Shown here: one piece after another, positions 2,501-28,789 of the stretch
Numbering within the stretch: the first letter of the stretch is position 1
How the letters are laid out: every line of letters starts with the position of its first letter
Assembly: GCA_964588165.1 (NCBI GenBank)
Contig: CAZPMS010000001.1
Coordinates: 27,303-91,302, forward strand
Direction: 5' to 3'
DNA: 64,000 nucleotides
Origin: an uncultured Gammaproteobacteria bacterium
GTDB lineage: Bacteria > Patescibacteriota > Patescibacteriia > UBA1558 > UBA10009
Translations under genes and position numbers: made by a program
The notes under the pieces: model-generated
What the model saw: the letters and a program-made list of their open reading frames with translations, nothing else
Told to the model about the DNA's origin: nothing
Databases searched by the model: none

Positions 2501-2501
2501 A

Positions 2502-4695: not shown

Positions 4696-4704
4696 ATATT
4701 TTTA

Positions 4705-5442: not shown

Positions 5443-5904
5443 TTAAGTTTTAAAAACTAAAAATTTATTAAGAAAAAAATTAGAAATAACACTTAAAATT
5501 AAAACTATAATTTTTGCGTAAATATCAAAAATTCCCAGCTGGGTAACTAAAAAATAGAGAGATATTTCTACCAGAGCCAGAGTAAAAACACTCACTGCCA
5601 AAAATTTAATATATTGAAAAGTAGCTTTGGCCTTATTGTTAAATGTCCAACGCTTGTTTAGGTAAAAACTATTAGTTGCCGCAACTATAAATGCAATTGC
5701 ATTGGCTAAAAGATAATTTTCTAAAAACCATGGGAATACCCTTGTTAAGGCAAAATATATCAAAAAATCTATTAGTGTATTCAATATTCCTACCAAAGAA
5801 AATTTTATAAATTGCCTAAAAGAAGGAAATTTTAAAAAACTTTTTACTATCCATCTGTTAGACAAAAAATTTTTAATTAAAACAAACCAAGAAAGACTAC
5901 TCAT
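5443..5904 (-). CDS. GtrA-family membrane protein (polysaccharide synthesis/translocation accessory)
   Basis: 153 aa, 4 TM, FIKFSLVGILNTLIDFLIYF signature; overlaps the downstream GT2 operon-style. Confidence 0.8.
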   Translation of the reverse strand: MSSLSWFVLIKNFLSNRWIVKSFLKFPSFRQFIKFSLVGILNTLIDFLIYFALTRVFPWFLENYLLANAIAFIVAATNSFYLNKRWTFNNKAKATFQYIKFLAVSVFTLALVEISLYFLVTQLGIFDIYAKIIVLILSVISNFFLNKFLVFKT

Positions 5905-13391: not shown

Positions 13392-14090
13392 TTATTTTTT
13401 CTTTAATAAAAACCTAGCCAATTCCAGATCAAAGTTATCATTAATATCTACAGATTTTTCGGCCGGCATAATATAAGGCACAGTCTTTTTACCAAAGAGG
13501 CTGTTTTTTAACAACACCGAACGCTTAGTTAAATACAAGCCGCCGTTCCGTTTAAACATTTTTGGGTAATCCTGCCTGCGCATGCCTTCTTTCTCTTTAG
13601 AAACGTAATCTTTTAACAGGCCGTTCTTAATTACTTTTAATTTCGCCGGATGGAAATCAGATAATTCATATACACTTGTTACCGAATCTGCCTTATGTTT
13701 GGCAGCAAGTTTGATAGATTCATCAATATTTTTACCTGATAAAAAAGGATTTGTTGGCTGCAGACAGATGATATAATCGTATTTAGTTTTGTTTAGTTTT
13801 TCCATTTCTTTTAGCCCATGAACTAAAACATCAATTGATTTTGCAGTATTAGATGCCAATTTTTTAGGCCTAATAAAAGGCACCTTGGCTTTATATTGTT
13901 CGGCAACCTTTTTAATCTTAATATCATCCGTAGAGACAATTACCTCATCAGTAAGCTTACTGGCTAAGGCAGCTTTAATTATATAAGAAATTAACGGCTG
14001 GCCGTTTACTTTAACAATATTTTTATAAGGAATGCTTTTTGAGCCTCCTCTGGCCGTAATAATGGCTAAAATTTTTTTATTTTTTATCAT
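13392..14090 (-). CDS. Acylneuraminate/nonulosonate cytidylyltransferase (CMP-NulO synthetase, CTP_transf_3)
   Basis: ILAIITARGGSKSIPYKNI N-terminus typical of NeuA/LegF/PseF. Confidence 0.85.
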   Translation of the reverse strand: MIKNKKILAIITARGGSKSIPYKNIVKVNGQPLISYIIKAALASKLTDEVIVSTDDIKIKKVAEQYKAKVPFIRPKKLASNTAKSIDVLVHGLKEMEKLNKTKYDYIICLQPTNPFLSGKNIDESIKLAAKHKADSVTSVYELSDFHPAKLKVIKNGLLKDYVSKEKEGMRRQDYPKMFKRNGGLYLTKRSVLLKNSLFGKKTVPYIMPAEKSVDINDNFDLELARFLLKKK

Positions 14091-15234
14091 AAAAACTTTT
14101 CTGAGTGTATAAATTTATATTTTCTAAAATATTAATTATTTTTTCACTAGTATTTAGTTGGTAAAAATAATTATCCTGTTCATATTTGCCATGTTCAACC
14201 TGAAAATCAATGCCTGCTTTAATCTCATCTGCTAAATAATTAACCTGTTTAACATTTTTACCTTGGTAGCGATTATTCTGCCTATTACCCACTAAAATAT
14301 AAGGAGTTCCCAGATAAGAACATTCTTTTATGCCGGCTGATGAATTACCAATTAAACACGTAGTTCTTTTTAATAAATTCAAAAATTGTTCGGCTGGTAA
14401 GTGGCCAATAAATCTGATATTTTGCGGGCTATTTTCTTTAATGTAATCTTTAATAGACAGGGTAACATCATTGTTGCCGGCATCAATATTTGGGGCAAAC
14501 CAGAGAGTGGGCATATTTTTATTATCAACTGCTTTAAGAATTTCTTTAACATGTTTATAATTATCTTCTTCTGAAGTAACAGGATGCTGCATAACCATTA
14601 GAAAAGGTTTAACTACATCAACTTCTGCTCCTTTGCCGTTTTTATTAACAAATGAAAAGTCAGTAATCTCTGATAGATAATTTAGGTATTCAATATCTAA
14701 AGAACCAACATTAGAAACATAGTTTGGATTCTCGCCCATAGCTAAAACCCTTTGTTTGGATTTTTCGTTAGTTACAAAATGAATATGGGACAGTTTAGTA
14801 ATGGCATGCCGTACACTTTCATCAATATTGCCGGAAACATCACCGCCTTCTATATGGACGATAGTTTTATTCATATAAGCTGCCACAATAGCAGCTGCCA
14901 GCATTTCGTACCTATCCCCTCTTACCACCACAAATTTTGGATTTAGTTTTTGAATAGCTTTAGAAAGTTTTAAAATTATTTTGCCGGTTATCTGGGACAT
15001 GGCCAAATTATCGCCCTTGCCAATATTAACTACCAACTGTTTATTTACTTTAAAACCTTCATCGGCCAGTTCTTTTAAAACATTGCCGTGCTTTTCCATT
15101 AAAGCCGATCCGCCAATTACCAACTGCAGTTTTAAATTATAATTTGGCAGCAATAATTTTAACAGGTGTTTGCATCTGGCAAAATGCACCCGGCTGGTTA
15201 TTACAAAACAGATTTTTTTAGGATTATTTTTCAT
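14077..15234 (-). CDS. UDP-N-acetylglucosamine 2-epimerase, hydrolysing (NeuC/LegG family)
   Basis: HIEGGDVSGNIDESVRHAITKLSHIHF core motif of non-reversible 2-epimerases. Confidence 0.85.
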   Translation of the reverse strand: MKNNPKKICFVITSRVHFARCKHLLKLLLPNYNLKLQLVIGGSALMEKHGNVLKELADEGFKVNKQLVVNIGKGDNLAMSQITGKIILKLSKAIQKLNPKFVVVRGDRYEMLAAAIVAAYMNKTIVHIEGGDVSGNIDESVRHAITKLSHIHFVTNEKSKQRVLAMGENPNYVSNVGSLDIEYLNYLSEITDFSFVNKNGKGAEVDVVKPFLMVMQHPVTSEEDNYKHVKEILKAVDNKNMPTLWFAPNIDAGNNDVTLSIKDYIKENSPQNIRFIGHLPAEQFLNLLKRTTCLIGNSSAGIKECSYLGTPYILVGNRQNNRYQGKNVKQVNYLADEIKAGIDFQVEHGKYEQDNYFYQLNTSEKIINILENINLYTQKSFYDKK

Positions 15235-15236: not shown

Positions 15237-16064
15237 TTATTTCCCCCAGCGGCCAATATAAAACAGCCGATTGTTTTCTTCTTCTTCAGAAAGCTGCCGA
15301 TGTTCTTCACCAAATAATGATTTATTATCTATAGCAACCTTTTTAAGCTCTTCAGGATTTTTAGCCAGCTCAATAATTTTTTTTAAGCCATTTGTATCTA
15401 CTGAAACCGGCTGGTCTTTTGTTTGCCAGCTTCTATCCAGTATATAGTGCCTTTCCAAAAAATCAACTCCAATATGCATGGCAATGGCGCTGGCCCTAAA
15501 ATCATCACCTGCAGAATGGTCGCTGTAGCCAACTTGTGGCGCTAAGGTCCTTAACCAATTAATCCTGTTTAAATTGAATTGATCATCTTTAATTGGATAT
15601 TTAGAAACACAATGAAGCAAAGCAAAATTTTTAGCTTTAGCTTTTAAAATTTCAGTGGTTTTTATAACCTCTTCGTCATAATGCATGCCGGTTGAAACAA
15701 TAATATGTTCAAATTTTTTAGCTAAATTTTCCAAAAGTTCATAGTTAGCACATTCCGCACTTCCCACTTTAATATACTTAAGGCCCAAGCTTCCTAAAAA
15801 ATTTACTGAACCGGAATTAAAACAGGTGGTTAAAAATTCTATACCTGCTTTTTTAGCTTCAGCCATTAGCTCCATATGAGCTTCTTCGGAAAGTTCAAAC
15901 TTAGACATTTCATCAGCTTGCCCTCTGGTGTTATCTTCGGCTTTCCATGATTGGAATTTTATAAAATCGGCTCCAACTTCTTTAGCCTGATGGATCATTT
16001 CTTTAGCAATTGATAGATCACCTTTATGATTAGCACAGGCATCTGCAATAATTTTTAATTTCAT
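15237..16064 (-). CDS. NeuB-family nonulosonic acid synthase, short form without C-terminal SAF domain
   Basis: ADACANHKGDL...GADFIKFQSW TIM-barrel NeuB signature. At 275 aa it ends before the usual ~60-aa antifreeze-like SAF domain. Confidence 0.8.
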   Translation of the reverse strand: MKLKIIADACANHKGDLSIAKEMIHQAKEVGADFIKFQSWKAEDNTRGQADEMSKFELSEEAHMELMAEAKKAGIEFLTTCFNSGSVNFLGSLGLKYIKVGSAECANYELLENLAKKFEHIIVSTGMHYDEEVIKTTEILKAKAKNFALLHCVSKYPIKDDQFNLNRINWLRTLAPQVGYSDHSAGDDFRASAIAMHIGVDFLERHYILDRSWQTKDQPVSVDTNGLKKIIELAKNPEELKKVAIDNKSLFGEEHRQLSEEEENNRLFYIGRWGK

Positions 16065-16065: not shown

Positions 16066-16764
16066 CTATTTATTCTTTCTTAAAAAGTAACATAATTTAT
16101 CGGAAAAAAATTCACTTTTTGGGTGCTTAATTTTTATTTTAGCAAAAATCCAAAATCCCGGACGTTTTCTTTCTCTATAAATTGCTTTTTCTACTTTAAA
16201 ATTCTTAAGAAGCATCATAAAAATATCTTTGGGAATAAAAGAGATATGATTATGAAGTTTACGGCGCCTGTAATCTGATTTATGATAGCCCTCTATTTTA
16301 TTTCTGAATAAAAATTTTAGCCTGCTATAAAAATTCCAGCCATTGGGCATAGAAATAATAAATAAACCGCCCGGTTTTAAAACTCTATCCACTTCACGCA
16401 GGTGATTAAAAGGATTTTCTAAATGTTCAATTAACTGGAACGAAGTAACTACCTCAAAGCTGTTATCGGCAAATGGTAATTTTTCAAAACTCAAATCCAC
16501 TTGGTAGAAAGGTTTTTGTTTTTCGTGAACCCGGTAGTCATCAATATCAACCATTTTAATTTTATTTTGCTTGAATTTTTCAGAAAGTACCTTGCCAAAT
16601 AAACCACTGCCGCAGCCCAAATCCAAAATCTCTAGATCATTAGATAGCTTGCTGATCTCTTGCCAAAATTCATCTCGGCCATAAACCCAGGAATTAAGCT
16701 TGGTTAAAGACTTTTTATATTCCTCAAAATTATCGGCTAATTCTTCTTTGCTAAAATATTTCAT
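16066..16764 (-). CDS. Class I SAM-dependent methyltransferase
   Basis: LDLGCGSGLFG motif I. Start placed at M10 (16764) so that it abuts rather than overlaps the upstream gene's stop. Confidence 0.75.
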   Translation of the reverse strand: MKYFSKEELADNFEEYKKSLTKLNSWVYGRDEFWQEISKLSNDLEILDLGCGSGLFGKVLSEKFKQNKIKMVDIDDYRVHEKQKPFYQVDLSFEKLPFADNSFEVVTSFQLIEHLENPFNHLREVDRVLKPGGLFIISMPNGWNFYSRLKFLFRNKIEGYHKSDYRRRKLHNHISFIPKDIFMMLLKNFKVEKAIYRERKRPGFWIFAKIKIKHPKSEFFSDKLCYFLRKNK

Positions 16765-17570
16765 TACTTTTTGCCTACCAAAAAATGGCACTGTGACATT
16801 AAATAATTAGTTTTGTAAGGCTGTTTTAAAAAGACTCTTCTTAAACCAACCCAAGCCTTCCAAACCTTTGTAACTTTTTTATCCCATTTTATGCTCATAG
16901 GGGCAAATAAAGGAACGGGATTGGCATTTACCGTGTAACAATCTTTAAAGCCAGCTTCCTCAGCTTTCTTTCTATAAACTGACGGTTGGTCATTATTCCT
17001 GTAATAATCACTCTGCAATTTGGCTACCGGCTGGAAGATTTTTTTGAATAATTTGTAAACTTTATTTATTTCTTGAATAGAAAATTTGCCCGGCACGTTC
17101 ATGGATATCATAAGCCCGCCCGGTTTTAAAACCCGGTATTGCTCTTTAATTATCTGCTGATAATTCTCCAGGTGTTCAAGCAGACCCATGGAAATGGTTA
17201 AATCAAAGCTATTGTCTTCAAATGGCAATTTTGCTGAATCACCCACCATAAAAGTTCCATCTTGATTATATTTTTTAAAATTATTTTTAGCCAGCTCAAT
17301 GGCTTCATCTGATAAATCCAATAAAGTCATTTTTACGCCATCATAATCAGATAAATAAAGTGAAATGGTTCCCCTGCCACAACCCAGTTCTAAACCTGAT
17401 TCAATTTTTTTATCGCCAATAAATGACCTTATTAATTTGTGGTAGTTAACAAAAGTCAGTTGACGCTGGGTTATTGGCTTAAAACCTTTGGGCACAAATA
17501 AATCAGTTTCTTCAAACTTATCTTTATCCAAGGTTTTTTGCCATTTATCTGAAAATTGCTTATTATCCAT
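16764..17570 (-). CDS. Class I SAM-dependent methyltransferase (second, distinct paralog)
   Basis: LELGCGRGTISLYL motif I. Start placed at the internal Met (M21) just after the stop of the dehydrogenase gene. Confidence 0.75.
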   Translation of the reverse strand: MDNKQFSDKWQKTLDKDKFEETDLFVPKGFKPITQRQLTFVNYHKLIRSFIGDKKIESGLELGCGRGTISLYLSDYDGVKMTLLDLSDEAIELAKNNFKKYNQDGTFMVGDSAKLPFEDNSFDLTISMGLLEHLENYQQIIKEQYRVLKPGGLMISMNVPGKFSIQEINKVYKLFKKIFQPVAKLQSDYYRNNDQPSVYRKKAEEAGFKDCYTVNANPVPLFAPMSIKWDKKVTKVWKAWVGLRRVFLKQPYKTNYLMSQCHFLVGKK

Positions 17571-18519
17571 TCTTGAAATGTTTCTTAATCTTATTAGCAA
17601 TAAACACCTCTGTTTTAGCCCATGACTCATAGGTAGCTCCGCCTAGATGATGAACCAATAATAAATTACGATTGGCTTTGGCGAATTTAACCATATGATT
17701 GCTAAGTAAATTCTTTTTAATTTTATGTTCGTTCCTAATTACATCTGTAGCAGCACCAGCCAGCCAGCCGTTTTTTAGGCCTTTTAATAATGCCTTTTCG
17801 TCAATCAACTCACCTCGGGCTGTATTAATAAACAAAGCATTGCTTTTCATCATTTTAAAATGGCGTTCCTTAACCATATCTTCAGTTTTATCTGTCAGCA
17901 AGACATGGCAGGAAAGAACATCTGACTTCTTAAATAAATCATTCATGAAAACTTGCTTAACTTTGGCCTTGGTAAATTCTGACTTTTTAAGGTGAGGATC
18001 ATAGGCTATTACTTCCATGCCAAAAGCTTTTCCGTACGTGGCAACTTTTTTACCCAATCTGCCCAGTCCTAAAATACCTAAAACCCGGCCGTTTAATTCA
18101 TAACCGGCATTAGTATCTCTTTCCCACTTACCCTTTTTAAGTGTTTCAAAACTCCAAGGGATATTTCTGATTAAAGCCAGAAGTAATCCCCAAGTAAGTT
18201 CGGCCGTAGCATGAACACCAGATAGAAATTTTGTATCACCCCTTAAGCTGGCCACAGTAACATTCTTTTTCTCAGCAGCTTTTAGATCAATATGATTCAA
18301 GCCAGTGGTATTAGTGCCTATAACTTTAAGATTAGGAAACTGATCCATAAATTTCTTATTTATCATATTTTCCAGTTTAATAACCAAAATTGTAATTTTT
18401 TTGCCAATAGCTTTATTTTTTTTATACTGGTCCCAAGTATAAACGCGGCCGATTTTTTTATAAATATCGGTGGCGGCTTTGGAATAATACTCTGGTTCGG
18501 CAATTAATGTATGTTCCAT
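17563..18519 (-). CDS. D-isomer-specific 2-hydroxyacid dehydrogenase (NAD-binding)
   Basis: GILGLGRLGKKVA Rossmann, catalytic R/E/H region (NTARGELIDEKAL...HHLGGAT). Confidence 0.8.
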   Translation of the reverse strand: MEHTLIAEPEYYSKAATDIYKKIGRVYTWDQYKKNKAIGKKITILVIKLENMINKKFMDQFPNLKVIGTNTTGLNHIDLKAAEKKNVTVASLRGDTKFLSGVHATAELTWGLLLALIRNIPWSFETLKKGKWERDTNAGYELNGRVLGILGLGRLGKKVATYGKAFGMEVIAYDPHLKKSEFTKAKVKQVFMNDLFKKSDVLSCHVLLTDKTEDMVKERHFKMMKSNALFINTARGELIDEKALLKGLKNGWLAGAATDVIRNEHKIKKNLLSNHMVKFAKANRNLLLVHHLGGATYESWAKTEVFIANKIKKHFKNG

Positions 18520-18543: not shown

Positions 18544-19920
18544 TTATGATATTTTTTCTACCTCTTTGTTCACAAATTTAGCCATTCTCTCACCGGCCCG
18601 GCCGTCAAACTGGCCATATTGCTGCTTAATCATGGCCTGTCTGCCTGCTTTATCAGTTTCTGGATTTTGAATATAAAGATTGATGGTTTTTATAAGCTCA
18701 TCAAAATTGTAAGATAACTTAGTTCCTCCAGTTGAAAATAATTTAGCGTTATGAGTTTTTATATAAATCCATTCCACAAATTTACGTCCTTTAGCTGGCC
18801 TGTCATCAAAAACAATATTTATAAGCGGTAGATCAAATGCAGCTCCATCTATATTTAAAGTTGAACCGTAATTCATCATTACTTCTGCATAATAAAGTGA
18901 GTTGGCAAAATGGCGCATATCATCTTTAGTAAATTCCCAATCTTTCCTGCCCACACCCCAGTCATTTGCAGCACCCGGATTAAAATAGTTGCCGGGCTTA
19001 TCATATTTAACAACCGGATCATTTAGATTATATTGAGTCATATCTTCATCATCTGTTGGCGCGAACCTGACTAAAATCTGCATATCTTTAGGAAGCTGCC
19101 CATTAATTATCTCATTTTTTAGATCTTTAATGAGATTTTGCCAAGACCATTTTAAGGAATTAACCGGCGGACAAAACAATAAAAACTTTTTACTGGGATC
19201 AAGCCCGACTTTTTTACAAAAATCTTCCTTGCTGTCTGGCTGGTAGTTCACATAATAATCAAAGTGCGGCATACCAACCACTTCTATATCTTTATTTTTC
19301 ATGTTTGACCATTTTAAAGCTTCAGACTTTACATAATTGTTATGGACAACCAATTTATCAGGCAAAATTCTCATAATTCCACGGGTAGATAGATTATCCC
19401 AGGAATTTACCACAGCTACAGACTTTACTTGGCGTTTTTTAGCTTCCCTTAACATGGCCATATTTTCTTTGCCATAAATATGCGGGCAAAAAACTAAATC
19501 TGGTTTATATTTTTCAAAATATGGGCCAAAAAAATTATCAGACATTACTTGCAAATATTTTTTGTAATATTTTTTCCTGGCGCACGGGATAATGCTGAGA
19601 ATTCTGATGGCAATTGACTTTAATAAATATTTGAACGGATTTTTGGCGGACATCTTCTGTTTTATAAAATTGGTTTTGGAATCCAAAAATAAATAGCTTT
19701 TATTGTTAATTTTTAGAGCATCTTTATTATCGGTATGGAAATCTACCGGTTCTAAAATTAAATTTTCTTGTTTGAATTCTTCAGCATAAAACTTAGCCTT
19801 TATTTTAGGATAAAATACCACCACCCTGTGACCGGCAGCTAAAATATTTCCTAAAACTGAAGTTCTTAGAATGTTTCTGGCCACATGGCCGAAGAATATG
19901 GGAATAAAAATGGTTTTCAT
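18544..19920 (-). CDS. Uncharacterised GT-B-like (MurG/PseG-like GH-x-x-RN N-terminus) protein, paralog 1 of 3; candidate glycosyl- or nonulosonate transferase
   Basis: 458 aa. Shares conserved blocks with ORFs 19997-21394 and 32293-33669: MKT(I/L)FIP(I/V)F.G...RN, KPDLVF, (S/G)WDNL, DIEVVG.P.FDYY. Confidence 0.5.
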   Translation of the reverse strand: MKTIFIPIFFGHVARNILRTSVLGNILAAGHRVVVFYPKIKAKFYAEEFKQENLILEPVDFHTDNKDALKINNKSYLFLDSKTNFIKQKMSAKNPFKYLLKSIAIRILSIIPCARKKYYKKYLQVMSDNFFGPYFEKYKPDLVFCPHIYGKENMAMLREAKKRQVKSVAVVNSWDNLSTRGIMRILPDKLVVHNNYVKSEALKWSNMKNKDIEVVGMPHFDYYVNYQPDSKEDFCKKVGLDPSKKFLLFCPPVNSLKWSWQNLIKDLKNEIINGQLPKDMQILVRFAPTDDEDMTQYNLNDPVVKYDKPGNYFNPGAANDWGVGRKDWEFTKDDMRHFANSLYYAEVMMNYGSTLNIDGAAFDLPLINIVFDDRPAKGRKFVEWIYIKTHNAKLFSTGGTKLSYNFDELIKTINLYIQNPETDKAGRQAMIKQQYGQFDGRAGERMAKFVNKEVEKIS

Positions 19921-19923
19921 AAA

Positions 19924-20017
19924 TTCTAATAGCTACGCTGACGTCGCTGACAGACGCGAACCGCGAACTAATTTAGTCTGCGGTCAGCGGTTTGCGCTAG
20001 TTCGCGCTGTCTGCGTT
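19924..20017. repeat. GC-rich imperfect palindromic intergenic element (family C, AGCTACGCTGAC head); encodes the last ~7 codons of the downstream paralog
   Basis: agctacgctgacgtcgctgacagacgcgaaccgcgaacta...tagttcgcgctgtctgcg inverted repeat; ~60% GC within a 30% GC genome. Confidence 0.6.
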
Positions 20018-21394
20018 ATTACTTATTTTATTTAAATAATCTAAAACATAATTGCCAACTCGCTGGCTACACTGCCCGTCAAACTTCCAGGTTAGTTCTT
20101 TAAGGATCCTGCTCCTACCCTCCTTTTCCTGCCTTGGATTTTTTAAGTATGAATTAATTTGTTTGACCAACTCCTGGTTGCTTCTGGCCATCTTCATGCA
20201 ATTTGCCTTAAGTACCGGCTGGTAATGGTCATTTTTATAAATATACCTGATGCTGATTTTAGTTGAATCAGGTTTAACAACATCATAGTCAATATTTATA
20301 ACCGGCTTATCTAAAGCAGCCGCATCAACTGTCATAGTGGAAGCAAAGTTGATGGTAACTGATGAATAGTAAATTGAATCAGCCAAGTGCTGCATGTCGG
20401 CTGTTAAAAACTCCCAGTCGTTACGGTAATTGTCTAAAGGAAACTGTTTGCCCGGCACATCATAAATAATATTTTGGTTTGATTTGAATTCACCCAGCTC
20501 TTTATTATAACTTGGCGCCAGCCTAACCAGCAGTTTTATTTTTTCATCAATCTCACCATTACTAATAGCTTGATCTAAATATTTAATAATTTCTTTAACA
20601 CTATCGCGGTAATGTCCAAAAAAAGGCGCAAATAAAATTAATTTATATTCTGGGCTAACGCCGATTTTTTTATAAAAATCTTCTTTGGCAGAAGGCTTAT
20701 AGCCAACATAATAATCAAAAATAGGCACGCCCGATGTGTAAATATCTTTTTCTTTCATATCAGCATACTTTATAGCTTCCTCCTTCATTAAATCAGTATG
20801 AACAATAATTTTATCTGGCCTAACCCTTACTACGCCTTTAGAGGTTAAATTATCCCAGCCTCTAACCATGGCAATTTTAGGCACCTTTTTCTTTTTAGCT
20901 TGTTTTAAAAACAAAGCGTCGGCCGGCGCTAAAACATCTGTTACAAAAACTAGGTCCGGCTTATACTTATCAAAATAGTTGCCAAATATTTTTTCCGGTA
21001 CTACCACAAAATCCAGCCAACGTACGAAATTTCTAAGCATCCGACTGCCCGAAAAAACTTTAGACAAAATTCTGCCCAGAGCATATCTTAATTTATTTTT
21101 ATCGGATGAATATTCAATTAACTGCAAACTTTTTTTAGACTGGGTATTTAAAAAACTTTTAGCCAAAAAATCAAAAAAGAATTCTACTTTACCTTTTTTA
21201 TGTTTCCATTCTACAGGCTCAAAAATGACATTCTTAAAGTGTCCATATTTTTCTTTAAAGAATTTTTCCTTGAGCGGTGGAACAAAACAAATAATCTTGA
21301 TATTTGGATTATCAAGAATTGGTTTAAGCATGTCTGTTATAAAAAGATTTCTGGTGCACATGCCATGGAACACGGGAATGAATAATGTTTTCAT
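19997..21394 (-). CDS. Uncharacterised GT-B-like protein, paralog 2 of 3
   Basis: 465 aa; same conserved blocks as paralog 1. Confidence 0.5.
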   Translation of the reverse strand: MKTLFIPVFHGMCTRNLFITDMLKPILDNPNIKIICFVPPLKEKFFKEKYGHFKNVIFEPVEWKHKKGKVEFFFDFLAKSFLNTQSKKSLQLIEYSSDKNKLRYALGRILSKVFSGSRMLRNFVRWLDFVVVPEKIFGNYFDKYKPDLVFVTDVLAPADALFLKQAKKKKVPKIAMVRGWDNLTSKGVVRVRPDKIIVHTDLMKEEAIKYADMKEKDIYTSGVPIFDYYVGYKPSAKEDFYKKIGVSPEYKLILFAPFFGHYRDSVKEIIKYLDQAISNGEIDEKIKLLVRLAPSYNKELGEFKSNQNIIYDVPGKQFPLDNYRNDWEFLTADMQHLADSIYYSSVTINFASTMTVDAAALDKPVINIDYDVVKPDSTKISIRYIYKNDHYQPVLKANCMKMARSNQELVKQINSYLKNPRQEKEGRSRILKELTWKFDGQCSQRVGNYVLDYLNKISNNADSAN

Positions 21395-21468: not shown

Positions 21469-23361
21469 TTATATTTTAATTTTCTCAGCAATAGATCCTC
21501 CGTCAAGTTTAAAATGTTTTAATACCTCAATATGCCCGCCACTTTCCGGGAATCTATCCAAACCAAACCTGATCAATTTTTTATTCAAACCTGATTGATT
21601 AATAATATTTAAAATCTCATCACCTTGTCCGCCTGCCAACATATGGTCATCAATATGAACTAACTGTTTTACATCCTTGATTTCATTAATCAGCCACTCA
21701 CTATCTATATTATTTAACCACGGGATATTGATAACTTTAACTTGCTTACCATCTTTTTCAAGTATGTCGGCTGCTTCCATTGCCATAGAGAGCATAATTG
21801 GTCCATAGGCCATAATGGCTATATCTTTACCATCTTTTAATGCAAAACCTTTGCCTGGCTCAATTTTATAACCTTCAGGCAGTTTTATTTCCCTAAAGCC
21901 TGGACAAATTGCCAGCCGTAAATAACTTGGAGTTTTAACCTCATTAGCCAGATATTTAATGGCCAGTTTTGACTCTTCATAATTACAGGGTTCAAAAATT
22001 TTCATTTCATGAATAGTCCTCATTAAACCAATATCCCTAACTGCCTGATGTGATTTACCAGGAATGGCTGGAATTAAACCGGCTAAATGCCCAACATAAA
22101 TAACCTGGCTATATTCTGTTGAGTTATTAAAAATTTGTTCATTGGCTCTGGCTGCCAAAAAGGCAGCAAAGGTATTTACTACCGGCAAATATCCTTGACG
22201 AGCAAGGCCACCGGCAATACCCACCATATCTTGTTCAGCAATGCCAACTTCCAAAAAATTATCAGGATAGTTCTCTTCAATTACTTTTATGCCGCAATCA
22301 ACGGCTAAATCACCATCTATAGCAATTATTTTTTTATTTTCTTTAACCAATTCAACCAAACCTTCGGAGTAGCCGCTTTTAACATCTGTATCGCACATTT
22401 TAATTTGAGCTCGCTCAAACTCCTTAGGAATTTCCGGAAACTCAATTTGATTATTACCTAAAAGATCTTTAATTCTATCATCAACTTCGCAAATTGCAGC
22501 TTCGTATTCTTCTTGGTTAGGGACTTTATTGTGCCATAAATACAAGCCGTCCTTTTTTAAAGCCTCTGGATGTTCCATAAAGGAAATTCCTTTGCCTTTT
22601 ATGGTATCTAAAATCACGGCCTTAGGCTTGCCATTAGAATAATCAATTTTCTCAAATATCTTAATTAAATCACCCATGTCATTGCCTTTTACCTCAATTA
22701 CTTCCCAGCCAAAAGCTTTTATTTTTTCTTCCAGCGGCGGCATATCTAAAATATCAGTTGTCAGCAAATCGGACTGGACTTTATTTTTATCCACCAAAAC
22801 TACTAAATTATCTAATTTCCAAGCAGGTGCTGATTGGAAACCTTCCCAGTTTTGCCCTTCTTCCAGTTCCCCATCCCCTACCATGACAAAAACTTTATTG
22901 GGTTTGTTTTCTTTTTTAAAAGCCAAGGCATGTCCTTTACCTTTGGAAATGCCCATTGCCAAAGCACCGGTATTGGCCTCAACTCCCGGAGTGGCTATAT
23001 CTACATGACCGGCCGGCCCGCCAAGTTGTCTGAATTTAAATAAATCATCATATGGCACTAAACCAACTGAGGCTAAGATTGAGTTCATCATTGGCCCGGC
23101 ATGCCCTTTGGATAGAATGAAGATATCACGTTCAGGATCATCTTTATCATTTGGATTAATCTTCATTTCCTTGTGATAAAGTAAAGTCATCACATCCGCA
23201 GCAGAAAGTGATGTACCCAGATGCCCTGTTCCTGGAACCATGACCACGCCTAAAATATTATGGCGTACCATTTCAGCCATAATTTGTAGTTTTTGTTCTT
23301 CTGACAAGTCAAAACTTTTAACTTTGTCAAAATCTTGTTTGGTGAAGAATATATTGTTCAT
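21469..23361 (-). CDS. Transketolase, N-terminal (TPP) and C-terminal (Pyr) halves fused in one 630-aa protein
   Basis: GHLGTSLSAADVMT, GDGELEEGQNWEG (TPP-binding), then EVGIAEQDMVGIAGGLA pyrimidine domain. Confidence 0.85.
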   Translation of the reverse strand: MNNIFFTKQDFDKVKSFDLSEEQKLQIMAEMVRHNILGVVMVPGTGHLGTSLSAADVMTLLYHKEMKINPNDKDDPERDIFILSKGHAGPMMNSILASVGLVPYDDLFKFRQLGGPAGHVDIATPGVEANTGALAMGISKGKGHALAFKKENKPNKVFVMVGDGELEEGQNWEGFQSAPAWKLDNLVVLVDKNKVQSDLLTTDILDMPPLEEKIKAFGWEVIEVKGNDMGDLIKIFEKIDYSNGKPKAVILDTIKGKGISFMEHPEALKKDGLYLWHNKVPNQEEYEAAICEVDDRIKDLLGNNQIEFPEIPKEFERAQIKMCDTDVKSGYSEGLVELVKENKKIIAIDGDLAVDCGIKVIEENYPDNFLEVGIAEQDMVGIAGGLARQGYLPVVNTFAAFLAARANEQIFNNSTEYSQVIYVGHLAGLIPAIPGKSHQAVRDIGLMRTIHEMKIFEPCNYEESKLAIKYLANEVKTPSYLRLAICPGFREIKLPEGYKIEPGKGFALKDGKDIAIMAYGPIMLSMAMEAADILEKDGKQVKVINIPWLNNIDSEWLINEIKDVKQLVHIDDHMLAGGQGDEILNIINQSGLNKKLIRFGLDRFPESGGHIEVLKHFKLDGGSIAEKIKI

Positions 23362-23380
23362 ATTATTTTATTAATTAAAG

Positions 23381-24490
23381 CTAAAAAAATTCACATTCAG
23401 ATTGTTCAACTGAATAAGGCTGAATAAAACTTGTTTTTAAGGTTTCAACGAAACTATTCTCTCTAAATGGCTTAATGATTGATGGAAATTCACCACCAAT
23501 TAAAATTGTATCCTTATTTATATCAGTATCGACAAGATACTCTTCTTCTACATCTTTATCGCCTCCCGATACTATTTTGTAATTTACTATTTTATAAATT
23601 TTGGATATTGAAAATGGCTTGCCATCTATTTCTTTTTTATAGTTTATATCAACTTTAATAAAAAAATCTGTATTACTTGTATTTTCCCTTATATTACTCA
23701 TTATTGAATTTAAATCATTAAAATCAATTGAAAAAGGAATTTCTTCAAGTGATTTAAGGTTATATAGTTTATTATCTAAAATACTAGTAGTTAATCGATT
23801 CTCTTCAAATTTAAAATCTGGATTATTTTCATAACTCACATAAGCAAAAGGGCAAATCGAAAGTAGTTGTGATTCTTCATCTATATCTATGCGCTTTTCA
23901 AGCATAATCATGTTAATATCAATGTCTTTAAGTCCACCTAAAAAATTATTTTTTAGTACAAAATTTGCTGTTGAGCTTGATATCTGACTGTGTCCTAAAA
24001 ATGGTAATTTATTTTTATTTAAACCACTATATTCTTTTATAGATATTGAAACTTCAGGTATAGCGCTTAGTTCTAACGATTGTTGAGTTTGTTTTAAGGA
24101 AGATTCACTTAGTTCTAACGATTGTTGAGTTTGTTTTAAGGAAAAAAAATTAATAGATAACCCTACAATTGCAACAACTAATAAATATATTGCAATTTTT
24201 ATTGCTCTGCTACTTGATTTATTAGCATTATCTAGTTGCTCAAATTCAAGGAGTTTAAACCTACCTTCAGTTGAAATTGTATAAAGATTTTCTTCGCCAT
24301 TGTCCGTTTTTTGAGTTCTTCCTAAATTTTGAAGTAAACTTTTTTCATTTATTAGCTTTCCAAAAAATAACCCTTTTTCATTTTGATTAAAATTTAAATC
24401 ATCTAATAAATTATTACAAAGAAACTCATTGTGCTTATGAGCATATTTTAGTATTTCAATATGAATATTTTTTCTTATTTTGCTATTCAT
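23381..24490 (-). CDS. Hypothetical membrane protein: cytoplasmic N-domain, one TM, extracytoplasmic C-domain; contains a 39-bp perfect tandem duplication
   Basis: Very AT-rich (~25% GC). TM IKIAIYLLVVAIVGLSINFF. Tandem repeat SLKQTQQSLELSE x2 = DNA 24085-24165. Confidence 0.6.
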   Translation of the reverse strand: MNSKIRKNIHIEILKYAHKHNEFLCNNLLDDLNFNQNEKGLFFGKLINEKSLLQNLGRTQKTDNGEENLYTISTEGRFKLLEFEQLDNANKSSSRAIKIAIYLLVVAIVGLSINFFSLKQTQQSLELSESSLKQTQQSLELSAIPEVSISIKEYSGLNKNKLPFLGHSQISSSTANFVLKNNFLGGLKDIDINMIMLEKRIDIDEESQLLSICPFAYVSYENNPDFKFEENRLTTSILDNKLYNLKSLEEIPFSIDFNDLNSIMSNIRENTSNTDFFIKVDINYKKEIDGKPFSISKIYKIVNYKIVSGGDKDVEEEYLVDTDINKDTILIGGEFPSIIKPFRENSFVETLKTSFIQPYSVEQSECEFF

Positions 24491-24574
24491 TAAACTTAAA
24501 TTTAATAATCATGCTGTAGAATAATAATAAAAAATTTTAAAATTTTATTCCACATTTTTTTCTACAAATTAATA

Positions 24575-24603
24575 TTGACAATATCTTTGAAATAGTTTAT
24601 AAT
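24575..24603 (+). promoter_or_regulatory. Consensus sigma70 promoter TTGACA-17-TATAAT
   Basis: TTGACA at 24575-24580, 17-nt spacer, TATAAT at 24598-24603; a GGGAGG RBS lies at 24634-24639 downstream. Confidence 0.6.
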
Positions 24604-24644
24604 CTGAAATTATTGTTCTTTCATTCTTTTTTAGGGAGGTTTTT

Positions 24645-24809
24645 TTGAAGAAGCCAGAAGGTGCTACAAGGTGCAAGAGATGCGGGTTGATACATTATGA
24701 TGGATCTAATTTGATCCAAGATTCAGAAACCAAGCATTGGCTTTGTAACACGCCTTTTTGTTTCGGAATTGTTCACCCGATCAGAATCGCTTTCAAGCAC
24801 CAAAACTAA
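24645..24809 (+). CDS. Candidate small (54 aa) zinc-ribbon protein gene with TTG start; alternatively a structured small RNA
   Basis: Perfect promoter, then GGGAGG, 5 nt, TTG. ORF (L/M)KKPEGATRCKRCGLIHYDGSNLIQDSETKHWLCNTPFCFGIVHPIRIAFKHQN with CxxC...CxxxxC. ~44% GC versus ~27% surroundings. Below the length cut-off of the supplied ORF track. Confidence 0.35.
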   Translation: MKKPEGATRCKRCGLIHYDGSNLIQDSETKHWLCNTPFCFGIVHPIRIAFKHQN

Positions 24810-24917
24810 CCTTTATACACAACATTACGACCTGTGGTGACGCTATGTGCGCAGCTAATGTTATCAAGATCAGCGATGATCCAAAACCCAAAAGCTAGCT
24901 TTCCCTATTCATTCAAG

Positions 24918-24949
24918 AGCCGTATGAGATATTCTCTGCGGCTTTTTTC
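24918..24949 (+). terminator. Rho-independent terminator (copy 1 of a 44-bp direct repeat)
   Basis: agccgtatgagatattctctgcggct followed by TTTTTT. Confidence 0.6.
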
Positions 24950-24962
24950 TTTATTAAATAAC

Positions 24963-25454
24963 TTATTCTAAATCAAATGGTCCGTAAAATCCACCTCCAG
25001 CAGATGCCCATTCTTGAATATAAAAAACCTTACCACAAATAATAGCCAATCGTGATACACCCACCCCAATCATCATTTTATCTTTATCTCTTTTATAATC
25101 TTCAGGATTTAAATCTGAACAACTTAATATTTTTATTTCATGATTATTTATACATTTATAGCCACCCCACCTATCTAATGATGTAGGTAAAATATTTCTA
25201 TCACTACCATAAAAACCTTCATCCATATTAATATGCTTTTTATAATCTACAGGATCAATTTGTGTTTTATAAGAAAAATTAATATCAAGGGAGCAATAAG
25301 TTTTTATTTTGGCCGATAAATTTTCATTATCTATAATCTGAAGTGTTGAGTTTTTTGGCACATAAAACATTTTTTTTATGGTTGGATAAAAGTAGATGAC
25401 TAAACCTGCAATAATAACTAGAATTATTAGTAATATAAAATTTTGTTTTTTCAT
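24963..25454 (-). CDS. Hypothetical secreted/membrane-anchored protein (163 aa, N-terminal TM, 6 Cys)
   Basis: MKKQNFILLIILVIIAGLVIYFY signal-anchor; no recognisable domain. Bracketed by near-identical 44-bp direct repeats. Confidence 0.6.
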   Translation of the reverse strand: MKKQNFILLIILVIIAGLVIYFYPTIKKMFYVPKNSTLQIIDNENLSAKIKTYCSLDINFSYKTQIDPVDYKKHINMDEGFYGSDRNILPTSLDRWGGYKCINNHEIKILSCSDLNPEDYKRDKDKMMIGVGVSRLAIICGKVFYIQEWASAGGGFYGPFDLE

Positions 25455-25499
25455 AATTTTTAGAAATTAATTATTCTTTATATATAAATTATTTTTTTA

Positions 25500-25545
25500 G
25501 GCCGTATGAGATATTCTCTGCGGCTTTTTTTCTTTTAAATAACAA
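25500..25545 (+). repeat. Copy 2 of the 44-bp terminator-containing direct repeat (ggccgtatgagatattctctgcggcTTTTTTTcttttaaataac)
   Basis: ~90% identical to 24919-24962; lies immediately upstream of the start of the 163-aa gene. Confidence 0.55.
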
Positions 25546-25552
25546 TTTTTTA

Positions 25553-25600
25553 GTAGCTACGCTGACTGACGCTGACTTGCCTGCCTACCGGCAGGCACGG
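25553..25600. repeat. GC-rich palindromic element (family C head AGCTACGCTGAC plus CCTGCC..GGCAGG hairpin, family D core)
   Basis: agctacgctgactgacgctgacttgcctgcctaccggcaggcacggac, immediately 3' of the ALDH stop. Confidence 0.5.
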
Positions 25601-25602
25601 AC

Positions 25603-27090
25603 TTAACTCTTTTTAGTTTGTGAATTTTGGATGCCGCCAGAATAATCTAAATAAACTGTCTGCCATTCACTAAAAATATCAATTCCGCCTGGGCCGGCCT
25701 CACGATGGCCGTTGCCTGATAGTCCGAATCCTCCGAATGGTAAGTGGACTTCTGAACCAAAAGTAGGGGCGTTTAAATAAACCACGCCGGTTTTTATTTT
25801 ATCCAACATCTGTAAACCTTTAGCAGAACTGTTACTGAAAACTGAAGCGGATAAACCATATTTAGTACCGTTCATAATTTCTATCCCCTCTTCTGGAGTT
25901 TCAAATTTAATTACTGATACAACCGGACCAAAAACTTCTTCCTGGCAAATTTTATCGTTTGGTTTGGCACCTGCAATTACAGTTGGCGCATAATAAAAAC
26001 CTTTAGCATGTTCACCATCTGTGAGGATTTGGCCGCCAACTAAAATTTCTGCGCCACCTTGTTTAGCTTCATCCACATATTTAGCTACATTATCCAATTG
26101 TTTTTGATTGATAACCGGCGTTACATAACTATCATCATTGGCAGCTGGGCCAACTTTAAGTTGTTTAGTTTTACTGACCAACTTGGCTACAAATTCATCA
26201 TAAATTGAGGCATGGACAACTGCCCGGCTGGTAGCCACACATCTTTGGCCGGCAATAGTAAATGAACCGGACATTACGCCATCTACTGCTAAATCTACGT
26301 CTGCATCATCCATAACCAGTACTCCATTCTTACCACCCATTTCCAAACTTACTTTAATAAGCCTGTCTGCTCCGATTTGGTTTAAATGGCTGCCAACTTC
26401 TGTTGAACCGGTAAAAGATATTAGATTGATGTCTGGATGGTTGGCTAAAAATTCACCTGCTTCCTGGCCATAACCCTGGACTAAATTAGCCACGCCTTTT
26501 GGCAAATCTGCTTTTTCTAAAATTTCAAATAGTAATTGAGCGGTTTGCGGAGTATCAGTAGATGGTTTTAAAACAGCTGTGTTGCCGCAAGTTAAAGCTG
26601 GGAACAATTTCCAGGCAATGGCCGCAATTGGAGCGTTCCAGGGAGTAATTAAAGCGCAAACACCAACAGGTACTCTTCTGGTTAAAGCCATTCTATTATC
26701 TAAAGCGGACTGGGTGGTTTGGCCATATAAACGCCTGCCCTCACCAGCAGCATAATAAGCCATATCTGCAGCTGCTTTTACTTCACCCATAGCTGCAGCC
26801 TTAACCTTGCCCATTTCTTTTACTATTACATCTGCGATTTCTTCCTGCCTTTCCATAATTATTTGGCCAACTTTAAAAAGAATATCAGCCCGCTGGGGTG
26901 ATTTTGTTTGTTCCCAGCTTAATAAAGCCTTCTTGGCTGATAAAACTGCTTCATTAACATCATCCTGATTAGATCTGGGAAATTCACCAAGAACTTCTTC
27001 TTTATTAGAAGGATTTATATTTTTAAAAGTTTGATTTGATTTGGACGGCACAAATTTGCCGTTCATGTAATTTAGGCTTTCTTTTGACAT
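25603..27090 (-). CDS. NAD(P)+-dependent aldehyde dehydrogenase
   Basis: 495 aa; ALDH glutamate and cysteine active-site regions (LEMGGKNG..., FTIAGQRCVATSR). Confidence 0.9.
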   Translation of the reverse strand: MSKESLNYMNGKFVPSKSNQTFKNINPSNKEEVLGEFPRSNQDDVNEAVLSAKKALLSWEQTKSPQRADILFKVGQIIMERQEEIADVIVKEMGKVKAAAMGEVKAAADMAYYAAGEGRRLYGQTTQSALDNRMALTRRVPVGVCALITPWNAPIAAIAWKLFPALTCGNTAVLKPSTDTPQTAQLLFEILEKADLPKGVANLVQGYGQEAGEFLANHPDINLISFTGSTEVGSHLNQIGADRLIKVSLEMGGKNGVLVMDDADVDLAVDGVMSGSFTIAGQRCVATSRAVVHASIYDEFVAKLVSKTKQLKVGPAANDDSYVTPVINQKQLDNVAKYVDEAKQGGAEILVGGQILTDGEHAKGFYYAPTVIAGAKPNDKICQEEVFGPVVSVIKFETPEEGIEIMNGTKYGLSASVFSNSSAKGLQMLDKIKTGVVYLNAPTFGSEVHLPFGGFGLSGNGHREAGPGGIDIFSEWQTVYLDYSGGIQNSQTKKS

Positions 27091-27217
27091 ATATTTATTA
27101 TTACTACTAATTACTAATCTGTACTAATATACGAATTCATTATTATTTTAGCTAAAAGAATGATTTTTAATGATGGTATTATTCGTATATTTGTATTGAT
27201 TTGTAATTCATAATCAA

Positions 27218-28774
27218 TTACTTTCGTTTAAATATAAGATTCTGTGTTATCCGGCCTGACTCTTGAAAGTCGGAAAGTTCTAAACCACGTTGTTTGAAAA
27301 AATCTACAAACCATTTTTCCCGTTCTTGCCAACCCTCATACCTAGTGGTTTCCACTAAAACTGATTTTAACTGCTCAGAAGCAAAAATTTTGTCGCCGCC
27401 TGCAACCACTTGCTGTTCAATGCCGTCCACATCGATCTTTATATGGTTAGGCTGTTCTAAACCATAATCATTAACCAGTGAATCGAGAGTTAACCCGATT
27501 GAACCTTGAATATGGACAGGTGTAAAATCTTTATCCAAATTATCCTTGGTAATGCCAAAAGCATTTTTTGCTTCACCATAACCAAATTCTTGAATATTGA
27601 AATTATTAAGCTGGTTTTTATCAGTTAAAGCTATTGGATAAGCTATAATTACTTCAGAAAAATTATTCTCTTTTATGTTTAAATTAAGTTTGGCAAAATT
27701 TAAAGCTTCCGGCTCAAAAGCATAAATTTTACAACTGCCTTTTAACAATTTTGCCGGATATAAACTGTACTGGCCAATATTAGCTCCGATATCGTAGATA
27801 ACATCACTTGGTACAAAATTATTCTCAATCCATTTTAAGGTTCCCGGCTCTTTAGTGTTATAGCTTTTACCTCGGCTAAATTCGGCTTTGGAATCTATGA
27901 TTAAAGACATTCTCTCTTTCCCGACCTGAAACTGCTTAACTTTTTTATGAGCTGAAATGATAAAACTGGTATTTTTTTTCTCACTAGCTTTAATATCCAA
28001 ATTATCGTTAATCTGGTAAAACGAGCTTAAAAAACCATTTGACTCCAGATTGGCTAAAAACTTTGAAAATTTCCGAGGGCTGTCTTTTATATTATGATAT
28101 TCTAAAATAATTTGGTTAACTTCAATTATTTTTTCAGACCTGATTATTTCTTCTAAAACCTCATCTTCTTTGCCCTCAATATCCAGTTTCAATAAATCAA
28201 TTGGCCTGTTGATATAGTTAGAAAGTTTTTTATTCTTAACTGTAATAGTTTCTGGCCTCTTATTACTCTTAACTGTAAAAAGGTCTTTGTCTAAACTATG
28301 GCCGGTGCTGCTAATTCTACTAGCATCATAAAACAAAATTTGCTCTTTTGAATCATTTGCAGAAATAGCCGCCTGAACAAGCTGAACTGACTTTAAATTA
28401 TTGTGCTTAATATTTTCTTCTAAAACTTTAAAGGTGCTTGGAAACGGCTCAAAGCAAATTATTTCCGCTTTAGGATACAAATATTTAAAATATAAAGTGG
28501 CCATTCCAATATTAGCGCCGCAATCTATAATAAAAGGATTTTTTATCAAGGTCTCAAAGTAGTAGGTTCGCCTTATAAAGATATCAACAAACATTGCGTA
28601 AAAGCTTCGGTAGCTTAAAACTTTGACTTTGTATCCTAAAAAATTTTCATTTTTAAAATCAATCCATTTAGATAAATGATTTTTAAAATTTAGTTTTAAA
28701 TAGCAAAAAAGAAGCCGAATTTTTTTCTTTTTACCAGTTTTGCCCTTAAAAATATATTGGATATCTCTAACCAC
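27218..28774 (-). CDS. Tandem-domain FkbM-family methyltransferase
   Basis: Two FkbM-type cores in one 518-aa protein: IDCGANIGMATLYF...FEP and YDIGANIGQYSLY...FEPE. Confidence 0.75.
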   Translation of the reverse strand: MVRDIQYIFKGKTGKKKKIRLLFCYLKLNFKNHLSKWIDFKNENFLGYKVKVLSYRSFYAMFVDIFIRRTYYFETLIKNPFIIDCGANIGMATLYFKYLYPKAEIICFEPFPSTFKVLEENIKHNNLKSVQLVQAAISANDSKEQILFYDASRISSTGHSLDKDLFTVKSNKRPETITVKNKKLSNYINRPIDLLKLDIEGKEDEVLEEIIRSEKIIEVNQIILEYHNIKDSPRKFSKFLANLESNGFLSSFYQINDNLDIKASEKKNTSFIISAHKKVKQFQVGKERMSLIIDSKAEFSRGKSYNTKEPGTLKWIENNFVPSDVIYDIGANIGQYSLYPAKLLKGSCKIYAFEPEALNFAKLNLNIKENNFSEVIIAYPIALTDKNQLNNFNIQEFGYGEAKNAFGITKDNLDKDFTPVHIQGSIGLTLDSLVNDYGLEQPNHIKIDVDGIEQQVVAGGDKIFASEQLKSVLVETTRYEGWQEREKWFVDFFKQRGLELSDFQESGRITQNLIFKRK

Positions 28775-28789
28775 TGTTTTATCTGTTAA

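Follow-up and report, generated by a model that had tools for sequence, protein, structure and literature searches.

The surface-sugar gene cluster of an uncultured, ultra-small bacterium of the Candidate Phyla Radiation (CPR) carries three related full-length genes, here called A, B and C. They lie in a stretch of 64,000 nucleotides (the window) of contig CAZPMS010000001.1 in GenBank assembly GCA_964588165.1. We consider it probable, with a good share of doubt left over, that their products are membrane-associated transferases of the GT-B fold which have kept the cytidine monophosphate (CMP)-binding half of TagF and move a CMP-activated nonulosonic acid (NulO). Both the family to which they belong (PF04464) and TagB-like NulO transferases as a kind (GtfS) are known already; what is new is a separate clade, and one which is probably mis-named.

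Pairwise blastp aligns the three proteins end to end, with identities of 36% over 467 columns for A and B (E 9.7e-98), 31% for B and C (E 7.8e-64) and 26% for A and C (E 6.1e-54), and these E values put their paralogy far beyond chance. C is the most divergent copy, and a six-frame phmmer scan of the 64-kb window found exactly these three members of the family. A and B are a tandem pair with a gap of 76 bp between them; C shares 4 bp with the Wzx flippase gene upstream of it and is followed directly by a second NeuA-like gene. From residue 1 onward all three read MKT[IL]FI, and all share [SG]WDNL and NP[EQR]....GR. KPDLVF is found in A and B, with QPDLIY at the same block in C, and one further shared block reads DIEVVGMPHFDYY in A, DIYTSGVPIFDYY in B and DIEVVGVIKYDRY in C. 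For B, the call made by JGI (P0001, 444 aa) begins 21 codons after the conserved MKT(L/I)F start.

All three proteins pass the gathering threshold (22.1 bits) of PF04464 Glyphos_transf, the TagF/TagB-like family, with 28.4 (A), 42.5 (B) and 38.6 bits (C), the match covering profile positions ~134–366 only. Their closest homologs come almost entirely from metagenome bins of CPR/Patescibacteria, and near homologs are called "CDP-glycerol glycerophosphotransferase family protein" by NCBI and JGI. The family is large: HMMER searches of 1.84 billion representative proteins returned 11,589 representative clusters at E ≤ 1e-3 and 2,630 at E ≤ 1e-30. Of the NCBIfam models NF046086 BFO_1060 comes first for 73 of the 73 members tested (lowest E 2.6e-22), the TarF model being touched by nine members and the TarL model by eight; TIGR04396 ("surface carbohydrate biosynthesis protein") is weakly matched by 18, at no more than 33 bits against a cut-off of 125. 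BFO_1060 is the strain 92A2 ortholog of Tanf_01245, that is GtfS, and TFUB4_00887 belongs to the same family (NF046086). GtfS is a 445-aa TagB-like protein of Tannerella forsythia encoded beside the pseudaminic acid (Pse) genes, and the O-glycan of its knockout lacks the terminal Pse5Am7Gra (plus one methyl group) only (PMC5420450, PMC6120980). Since A, B and C score 50.3, 49.9 and 52.3 bits against NF046086, far under its cut-off of 200 (non-CPR relatives score 42–85 bits), we regard them as a sister clade of the BFO_1060 family and not as members of it.

The AlphaFold2 (AF2) model of B (pLDDT 93.6, pTM 0.92) shows a GT-B fold into which four helices are inserted at residues 69–131; these are net basic (12 K/R vs 5 D/E). 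All Foldseek matches of the model in the PDB are GT-B enzymes, with a probability of 1.0 for GT-B enzymes including TagF. The top neighbours are MshA and UDP-N-acetylglucosamine (UDP-GlcNAc) 2-epimerases including NeuC, with TM-scores slightly above that of TagF (3l7k), which stands at rank 33. The predicted fold establishes GT-B without discriminating between functions. Pfam and NCBIfam gave no match to MurG or LpxB, the diglucosyl-diacylglycerol synthase models reaching 24 bits at most against a cut-off of 500, and MGDG_synth (GT28) was sub-threshold in Pfam (20.1 bits vs 25). Neither database gave a match to the sialyltransferase families GT38, GT42, GT52 and GT80 at E up to 10, nor did Pfam match Capsule_synth (KpsS1/KpsC-type) at that level. 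Profile searches of the PDB returned TarL and a GT28 enzyme only, with no sialyltransferase among them, and GT80, GT52 and GT38 enzymes are absent from the top 50 Foldseek matches of B.

A preliminary description of this DNA, made from its letters alone, had reported three paralogs of about 460 aa with the motif blocks listed above. The open reading frames (ORFs) of 458, 465 and 458 aa, 26–36% identical, agree with it, and the blocks are present with some variation, such as QPDLIY in C. It was also right in calling the proteins GT-B-like. Its statement that they belong to an unrecognised family and fit no glycosyltransferase family has to be given up, as all three pass PF04464 and their homologs carry names at NCBI and JGI. 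The glycine-histidine loop which reminded it of MurG/PseG is not conserved: Gly11 occurs in 53 of 73 homologs, and a histidine in five at column 12 and in 18 at column 10.

Five representative clusters (P0121–P0125) contain proteins of ~900 aa with two full family modules in tandem, an arrangement which mirrors the A–B pair; at least three of them keep [SG]-W-D in both halves, and fusion artefacts of gene calling are possible. We also looked at fusion partners as a clue to the donor. Neither NeuA nor NeuB is among them; the partners, a methyltransferase and a polysaccharide deacetylase, fit glycan assembly or tailoring and are silent on the donor. Assigning A, B or C orthology across loci by best match labelled 113 of 149 ORFs "B-like", a query bias from which no claim is drawn.

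In TarL the histidine of W299-H300 (TagF H444) is the base and H433 (TagF H584) contacts the CMP alpha-phosphate; according to the cryo-EM study of TarL and earlier work cited there, both are invariant and critical in the TagF-like enzymes tested, and TarL H300N and H433A are inactive (PMC10901376). Six bona fide TagF-like genes taken from annotated plasmids served as controls; four of them (L007, L010, L011, L012) adjoin tarI/tarJ or tagD. The motifs Q-x-W-H, [KR]-x-H, APT[FW]R and DYSS are present in all six. The C-terminal domain of the family aligns to TarL (8VA1) with E 6.6e-5 by HMMER and a probability of 98–99% by HHalign, and the CMP side of the active site is retained. P257 of B falls on the cytidine-pocket P395 of TarL (61/73 members) and R291 on K431 (72/73). 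S352-T353 falls on S474/S475, the DYSS serines of the phosphate-binding helix (S352 in 67/73), and D357 on the following glutamate, E479 (70/73). The TarL paper names E497 as ribose-binding; the residue count puts the conserved glutamate at 479, and E497 was not used. The simplest reading of these residues would be the same leaving group (CMP) with another payload and another base.

The two catalytic histidines are a different matter. HMMER and HHalign alike place TarL H433 on column 293 of B, where A and B have alanine and C tyrosine; in the family the column holds proline in 28 members, arginine in 21, histidine in 16 and alanine in three of the 73. The non-CPR members examined (loci L069–L092) keep R-x-H-P at this position, a motif found in 16 of 73 members overall, and most CPR members have proline, arginine or alanine. 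Judged by the alignment, column 293 is a lineage-specific loss of a residue which is essential in the TagF-like enzymes. In the N-terminal domain no column of the 73 members exceeds 32% histidine. The only invariant columns in the family are W180, D181, G222 and R427 (B numbering), W180-D181 thus being present in 73/73. APT[FW]R has shrunk to a proline, the DYSS signature is incomplete, the loop past the strand equivalent to β15 is shorter in A, B and C than in TarL, and the TagF hidden Markov model (HMM) gives family members 30 bits or less.

From strand topology we infer that Trp-Asp replaces Trp-His. HHalign pairs the modelled B strand 148–151 with TarL β14 and strand 195–198 with β16, of which only the β16 match lies in the high-confidence core of the N-domain alignment, which begins at B195/TarL331. 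One strand stands between the two in each protein, and W-D (B) or W-H (TarL) comes after it. The direct HHalign placement of TarL W-H (global, local and cropped) is on B 164–167; it was rejected, the model having a helix there (157–168) where TarL has strand β15.

The genes around relatives were surveyed by scanning one genome per species with a 21-sequence subset of the family. This gave 313 relatives, of which the best 80 loci were analysed, with flanks of 10 kb and with neighbours called by phmmer, the seeds being taken from the window and the TagF-like control loci. Since the patterns WDNLTSKG or ..DKPVIN.. served to select these 80 loci, W-D is conserved among them by construction; because of this selection, the invariance of W-D rests on alignment A2 and on an independently found Rhizobium homolog. 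A NeuB or NeuA gene is found no more than 10 kb away in 58/80 loci; for loci measuring 18 kb or more the count is 43 of 50. Among the 38 loci with full 10-kb flanks, 34 have a NulO-pathway gene (NeuB, NeuA or NeuC), at a median distance of 948 bp from the family gene and on the same strand in 30 of the 34. By gene, NeuB occurs in 52/80 loci, NeuC in 35, 2-hydroxyacid dehydrogenase in 30 and Wzx in 20, as against a TagD-like gene in one, a TarI-like gene in one and TarJ in none; PF01467 and PF01128 are absent from the Pfam-annotated loci L001–L006.

The NulO linkage holds in the CPR and in six other lineages. Outside the CPR it is seen in 11 of 14 loci, from Acidobacteriota, Gemmatimonadota, Bacteroidota (including a Pseudotenacibaculum isolate), Planctomycetota and a deltaproteobacterium. 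In L001 the family gene stands between NeuA-NeuB-NeuC and a second NeuA/NeuB pair. In L005 four paralogs are followed by 2-hydroxyacid dehydrogenase, methyltransferase, NeuC and short NeuB genes, which is the order of the window. The Rhizobium homolog, found by independent tblastn, is a megaplasmid-encoded "hypothetical protein" of 20% identity, located directly after NeuB-KpsF-GT-NeuC-NeuA. It keeps S-W-D and scores 188 bits against the family HMM and nothing against the TagF HMM. On plasmid NZ_CP042825 of Rhizobium sp. WL3 (L093) positions 952–6801 hold four consecutive "hypothetical proteins" of ~450–510 aa upstream of NeuB; that at 952–2493 scores 24.5 bits against the family, and the four may be additional, divergent transferases belonging to the same superfamily. 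A search of the literature found no paper connecting CPR bacteria with NulOs.

The preliminary description had placed the three genes next to nonulosonate genes, and they are indeed flanked by two NeuB/NeuA sets and NeuC. Its proposal that they are candidate nonulosonate transferases gains support from BFO_1060 being nearest for 73/73, from the GtfS genetics and from the co-occurrence elsewhere that it had asked for, as counted above. Nothing pointed with confidence to MurG or LpxB.

Several observations tell against a NulO donor for A, B and C. The homology to GtfS is distant (42–85 bits vs 200), and the HP and D/E-D/E-G motifs cited for GtfS (sialyltransferase-type) are absent from all three proteins. 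The equivalence of W-D and W-H rests on topology, and sequence-only HHalign sets W-H on B 164–167. NulO genes are absent from some loci (L014, L020, L034, L057, L088 and L003), and of the 50 loci measuring 18 kb or more, seven have neither NeuB nor NeuA. In some loci a single NeuB is accompanied by as many as four paralogs, which implies that not every paralog needs a NulO donor. The linkage is set against a background frequency of NulO genes which is our own estimate, at most a few percent per random 21-kb window of a ~1-Mb genome. Lastly, SpsB of Bacillus subtilis has a TagB domain and is encoded in the legionaminic acid (Leg) operon, and Leg on the spore surface does not depend on it (PMC7439481), from which it follows that adjacency plus a TagB domain is not sufficient for assignment as a NulO transferase.

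Three other explanations have to be weighed against this background. A, B and C might be GT-B glycosyltransferases using an ordinary UDP-, GDP- or dTDP-sugar, or some other CMP- or CDP-activated group, and be linked to NulO genes only through a shared glycan cluster, as may be true of SpsB. The dispensability of SpsB for Leg transfer, the loci with up to four paralogs per NeuB and the NulO-free loci are all in keeping with this, as are the UDP-sugar enzymes (MshA, UDP-GlcNAc 2-epimerases) at the top of the Foldseek matches and an N-domain which resembles the GT28 lipid glycosyltransferases. On the other hand, the sole relatives of the C-terminal domain detectable by sequence are the CMP-releasing TagF-like enzymes, and the proline of the cytidine pocket has been preserved. 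Furthermore, NulO genes are the commonest partners (NeuB 52/80 vs Wzx 20/80), the linkage spans at least seven phyla, and the nearest curated family is a NulO transferase. We think such a donor unlikely, while giving it serious weight.

Should the database name be right, the three proteins would be CDP-glycerol or CDP-ribitol polyol-phosphate transferases which build a teichoic-acid-like polymer or decorate a glycan with glycerol phosphate. They do pass PF04464, their C-terminal domain aligns to TarL 8VA1, their homologs are so annotated, and the conserved CMP-side residues fit any CMP-releasing donor. However, A, B and C lack both essential histidines, with histidine at the H433 column in only 16/73 members. 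APT[FW]R is down to a proline, and the TagF HMM reaches 30 bits at most on members. TagD, tarI and tarJ, adjacent in four of the six controls, are missing from the window and occur in at most 1/80 loci each. This makes a polyol-phosphate role very improbable. Because the catalytic histidines are lost, tagD and tarIJ are rare, NulO genes are linked and BFO_1060 is nearest, the label "CDP-glycerol glycerophosphotransferase" is probably wrong. Least credible of all is that they are not transferases, but soluble GT-B-like enzymes such as a PseG/NeuC-like nucleotide-sugar hydrolase or 2-epimerase of NulO precursor synthesis. UDP-GlcNAc 2-epimerases including NeuC are among the top Foldseek matches, and C has faint matches to Epimerase_2 (Pfam E 0.044) and NeuC (TIGR03568 E 1.9e-4), yet these are far under the cut-offs (13 vs 30.6 bits and 20 vs 236 bits) and the cluster already has a genuine NeuC. 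Two to four paralogs and tandem two-module fusions would be atypical of a pathway enzyme, and both the basic insertion of four helices and the neighbouring Wzx gene suggest instead a transferase close to the membrane.

If A, B and C are NulO transferases, they would have descended from the TagF/TagB (PF04464) scaffold as monotopic proteins of the cytoplasmic face. Their C-terminal Rossmann domain, with its TagF-like CMP site, would bind a CMP-activated donor of the N-acetylneuraminic acid (Neu5Ac) or ketodeoxynonulosonic acid (Kdn) type, supplied by the two NeuB/NeuA sets of the cluster. Where the phosphotransferases have a polyol-phosphate loop and their two catalytic histidines, there would be a short Ser-Trp-Asp loop after the equivalent β-strand. 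Asp181 (B) could then serve as the general base, activating an acceptor hydroxyl for attack on C2 of the donor, with departure of CMP stabilised by R291, R427 and the near-invariant H390. The acceptor might be an undecaprenyl-phosphate-linked oligosaccharide started by the Bac_transf protein of the window, the product being exported by the adjacent Wzx. Three paralogs would allow three linkages or acceptor positions, and the tandem genes and ~900-aa two-module fusions suggest sequential or alternating transfers.

A bolder version, which we put forward as a long shot, is that the CPR-dominated clade is a mechanistically distinct glycosyltransferase family outside CAZy. In it the TagF scaffold would have been turned into an ulosonic-acid transferase by the change of Trp-His to Trp-Asp, dispensing even with the HP histidine of non-CPR relatives. 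Tandem pairs and fusions would act like the dual modules of KpsC, polymerising or alternately linking NulOs into a dense, sialic-acid-like polyanionic coat on ultra-small episymbionts, including host-associated Saccharibacteria.

The genes of the window which surround A, B and C are collected in Table 1. Between ~13.4 and 41.8 kb every gene reads on the minus strand, and together they make up a surface-glycan island, in which A/B and C flank two NeuB/NeuA sets identified by Pfam and NCBIfam scans. The NeuC gene indicates a pathway of the Neu5Ac type, as far as its family assignment goes. In the same scans no dehydratase or aminotransferase of the PseB/PseC type was seen in the cluster, and for this reason the donors are more likely to be of the Neu5Ac/Kdn type than 5,7-diamino sugars. 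A short NeuB (279 aa) occurs at the corresponding position in L005/L006, the L005 gene starting at 21040, at the edge of the locus. The two methyltransferases are probably tailoring enzymes, to judge by their domains. As listed, the second methyltransferase ORF (16764–17630) and that of the dehydrogenase have 68 nt in common; the longest ORF probably places the start of the methyltransferase too early.

Table 1. Genes of the surface-glycan region, with positions in the window
Feature	Position	Strand	Evidence and remarks
Wzy_C (O-antigen ligase-like) protein	8624–10906		760 aa; C-terminal TPR repeats
Initiating phosphoglycosyl transferase Bac_transf	11001–12371	+	PF02397, 225 bits; starts lipid-linked glycan
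NeuA-like cytidylyltransferase 1 (CMP-nonulosonate synthetase), donor set 1	13392–14090	-	PF02348 CTP_transf_3, E 1.8e-25; best NCBIfam PseF, 166 bits, below cut-off
NeuC, hydrolysing UDP-GlcNAc 2-epimerase making N-acetylmannosamine (ManNAc)	14077–15234	-	TIGR03568 NeuC_NnaA, 347 bits vs cut-off 235.9; PF02350
Short NeuB-family synthase without SAF domain	15237–16064	-	275 aa; PF03102, E 8e-56; best NCBIfam NeuB_NnaB, 200 bits, below cut-off
Two class-I S-adenosylmethionine (SAM) methyltransferases	16066–16791, 16764–17630	-	Methyltransf_11/25; methyltransferase at same position in L005
D-2-hydroxyacid dehydrogenase	17563–18519	-	PF02826/PF00389; PGDH/glyoxylate-reductase-like; directly downstream of A; same order in L005
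Paralog A	18544–19920	-	458 aa; S173-W174-D175; Ala at TarL H433 position; TagF-fold GT-B, candidate CMP-nonulosonate transferase
Paralog B	19997–21394	-	465 aa; G179-W180-D181, Ala293 (TarL H433 position), H390, R427; modelled copy
Genes between the two NulO sets	21469–29611	-	Fused transketolase-like protein (630 aa), aldehyde dehydrogenase, 518-aa FkbM methyltransferase with two matched stretches, short-chain dehydrogenase/reductase (SDR)
NeuB+SAF nonulosonate synthase 2	29700–30800	-	PF03102 + PF08666; NeuB_NnaB, 320 bits, below cut-off
Haloacid dehalogenase (HAD)-family sugar phosphatase	30907–31569	-	PF13419; HxpB-like, 122 bits; between NeuB2 and NeuA2
NeuA-like cytidylyltransferase 2	31573–32289	-	PF02348, E 3.3e-25; PseF-like, 131 bits, below cut-off; directly downstream of C
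Paralog C	32293–33669	-	458 aa; S-W-D; Tyr at TarL H433 position
Wzx-type flippase	33666–35054	-	PF01943/PF13440; in L005 Wzx gene stands between family paralogs
GT4 glycosyltransferase	35051–36319	-	PF00534/PF13439
102-aa ORF between GT4 and PMT_2	36344–36652	-	
PMT_2 GT-C protein	36707–38425	-	572 aa; PF13231

The genes between the two NulO sets may provide a route by which a two-carbon unit or an acyl group is added to the sugar; two ORFs among them, at 23381–24490 (369 aa) and 24963–25454 (163 aa), have no Pfam or NCBIfam match. A split transketolase is found next to family paralogs in the Harrisonbacteria locus L003 (12984–13793 and 16897–17814). The HAD phosphatase may be a NulO-9-phosphate phosphatase. 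The Wzx flippase implies assembly of a lipid-carrier glycan at the cytoplasmic face. The GT4 and PMT_2 proteins add to the assembly or transfer enzymes of this island, and beyond the PMT_2 gene come a GT2 and then more GT4 genes. For the final glycan acceptor, the PMT_2 and Wzy_C/TPR proteins might each serve as ligase, polymerase or oligosaccharyltransferase. A phmmer scan of the whole window found no tagD, tarI or tarJ. Genes like those of the CysD/CysN sulfate adenylyltransferase lie within the glycan island (43779–45867, plus strand), and in L001 two sulfotransferases and an ATP-sulfurylase/APS-kinase adjoin the family gene and the NulO genes (3741–6451 and 19005–20717), which hints at sulfated NulO-containing glycans in CPR bacteria. 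At the edge of the window a 1016-aa ORF (60888–63938, minus strand) has no Pfam match at E ≤ 1e-5.

To our knowledge, bacterial transferases for nonulosonic acids (Pse, Leg and relatives of sialic acid) are scarce, being the Maf proteins, KpsS1/GT118 and T. forsythia GtfS, the last defined genetically only. Glycoengineering and work on surface mimicry are hampered by this shortage. Members of a large family are consistently named as teichoic-acid enzymes or "hypothetical", and if the reassignment is true a widespread annotation would be corrected. S-W-D versus W-H would in that case be a sequence signature which parts glycosyl transfer from phosphodiester formation on one scaffold, and many CPR/Patescibacteria, including Saccharibacteria, would be seen to invest heavily in surface glycans of the sialic-acid type.

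Of the systems known, GtfS stands closest to A, B and C. It is the best curated match throughout the family, of similar size (~445 vs 458–465 aa), of the same TagB/GT-B superfamily, and it likewise adjoins CMP-NulO biosynthesis genes; the likeness in the NF046086 profile is strongest across the region with the S-W-D loop. It differs in host (Bacteroidota, as against mostly CPR), in the two to four paralogs or tandem fusions found here, and in its 5,7-diamino NulOs, where Neu5Ac/Kdn-type donors are likely for A, B and C. SpsB (COG1887, the TagB/SpsB family) and TIGR04396 are also TagB-like or related and encoded beside NulO pathways, neither with a proven activity. With TagF, TagB, TarF and TarL (PF04464; 3L7I-K, 8VA1) the paralogs share the GT-B fold, C-terminal homology and the CMP-side residues, and the amphipathic, basic helical insertion of B suggests monotopic membrane binding as in TarL; they differ in being without W-H (H300), H433, full APT[FW]R and DYSS, and linkage to tagD/tarIJ.

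The GT-B sialyltransferases (GT80 PmST1, GT52 NST/Lst, GT38 polysialyltransferase) combine a CMP-NulO donor and a GT-B fold with an aspartate of the N-domain as general base and basic or histidine residues on the CMP phosphate. The chemistry we propose for A, B and C would be the same, as a parallel in mechanism, with no sequence relationship detected. The Pse transferase KpsS1 (GT118) and the retaining Kdo (3-deoxy-D-manno-octulosonate) transferases KpsC, WbbB and KrkA (GT107, GT99 and GT140) also use CMP-ulosonic acids and are encoded in capsule or O-antigen clusters. These enzymes belong to another fold lineage and sequence family than A, B and C, which have no Capsule_synth match. The tandem modules of KpsC make alternating linkages (PMC12887879), and its dual modules offer a possible analogy to the A–B tandem and to the fusions.

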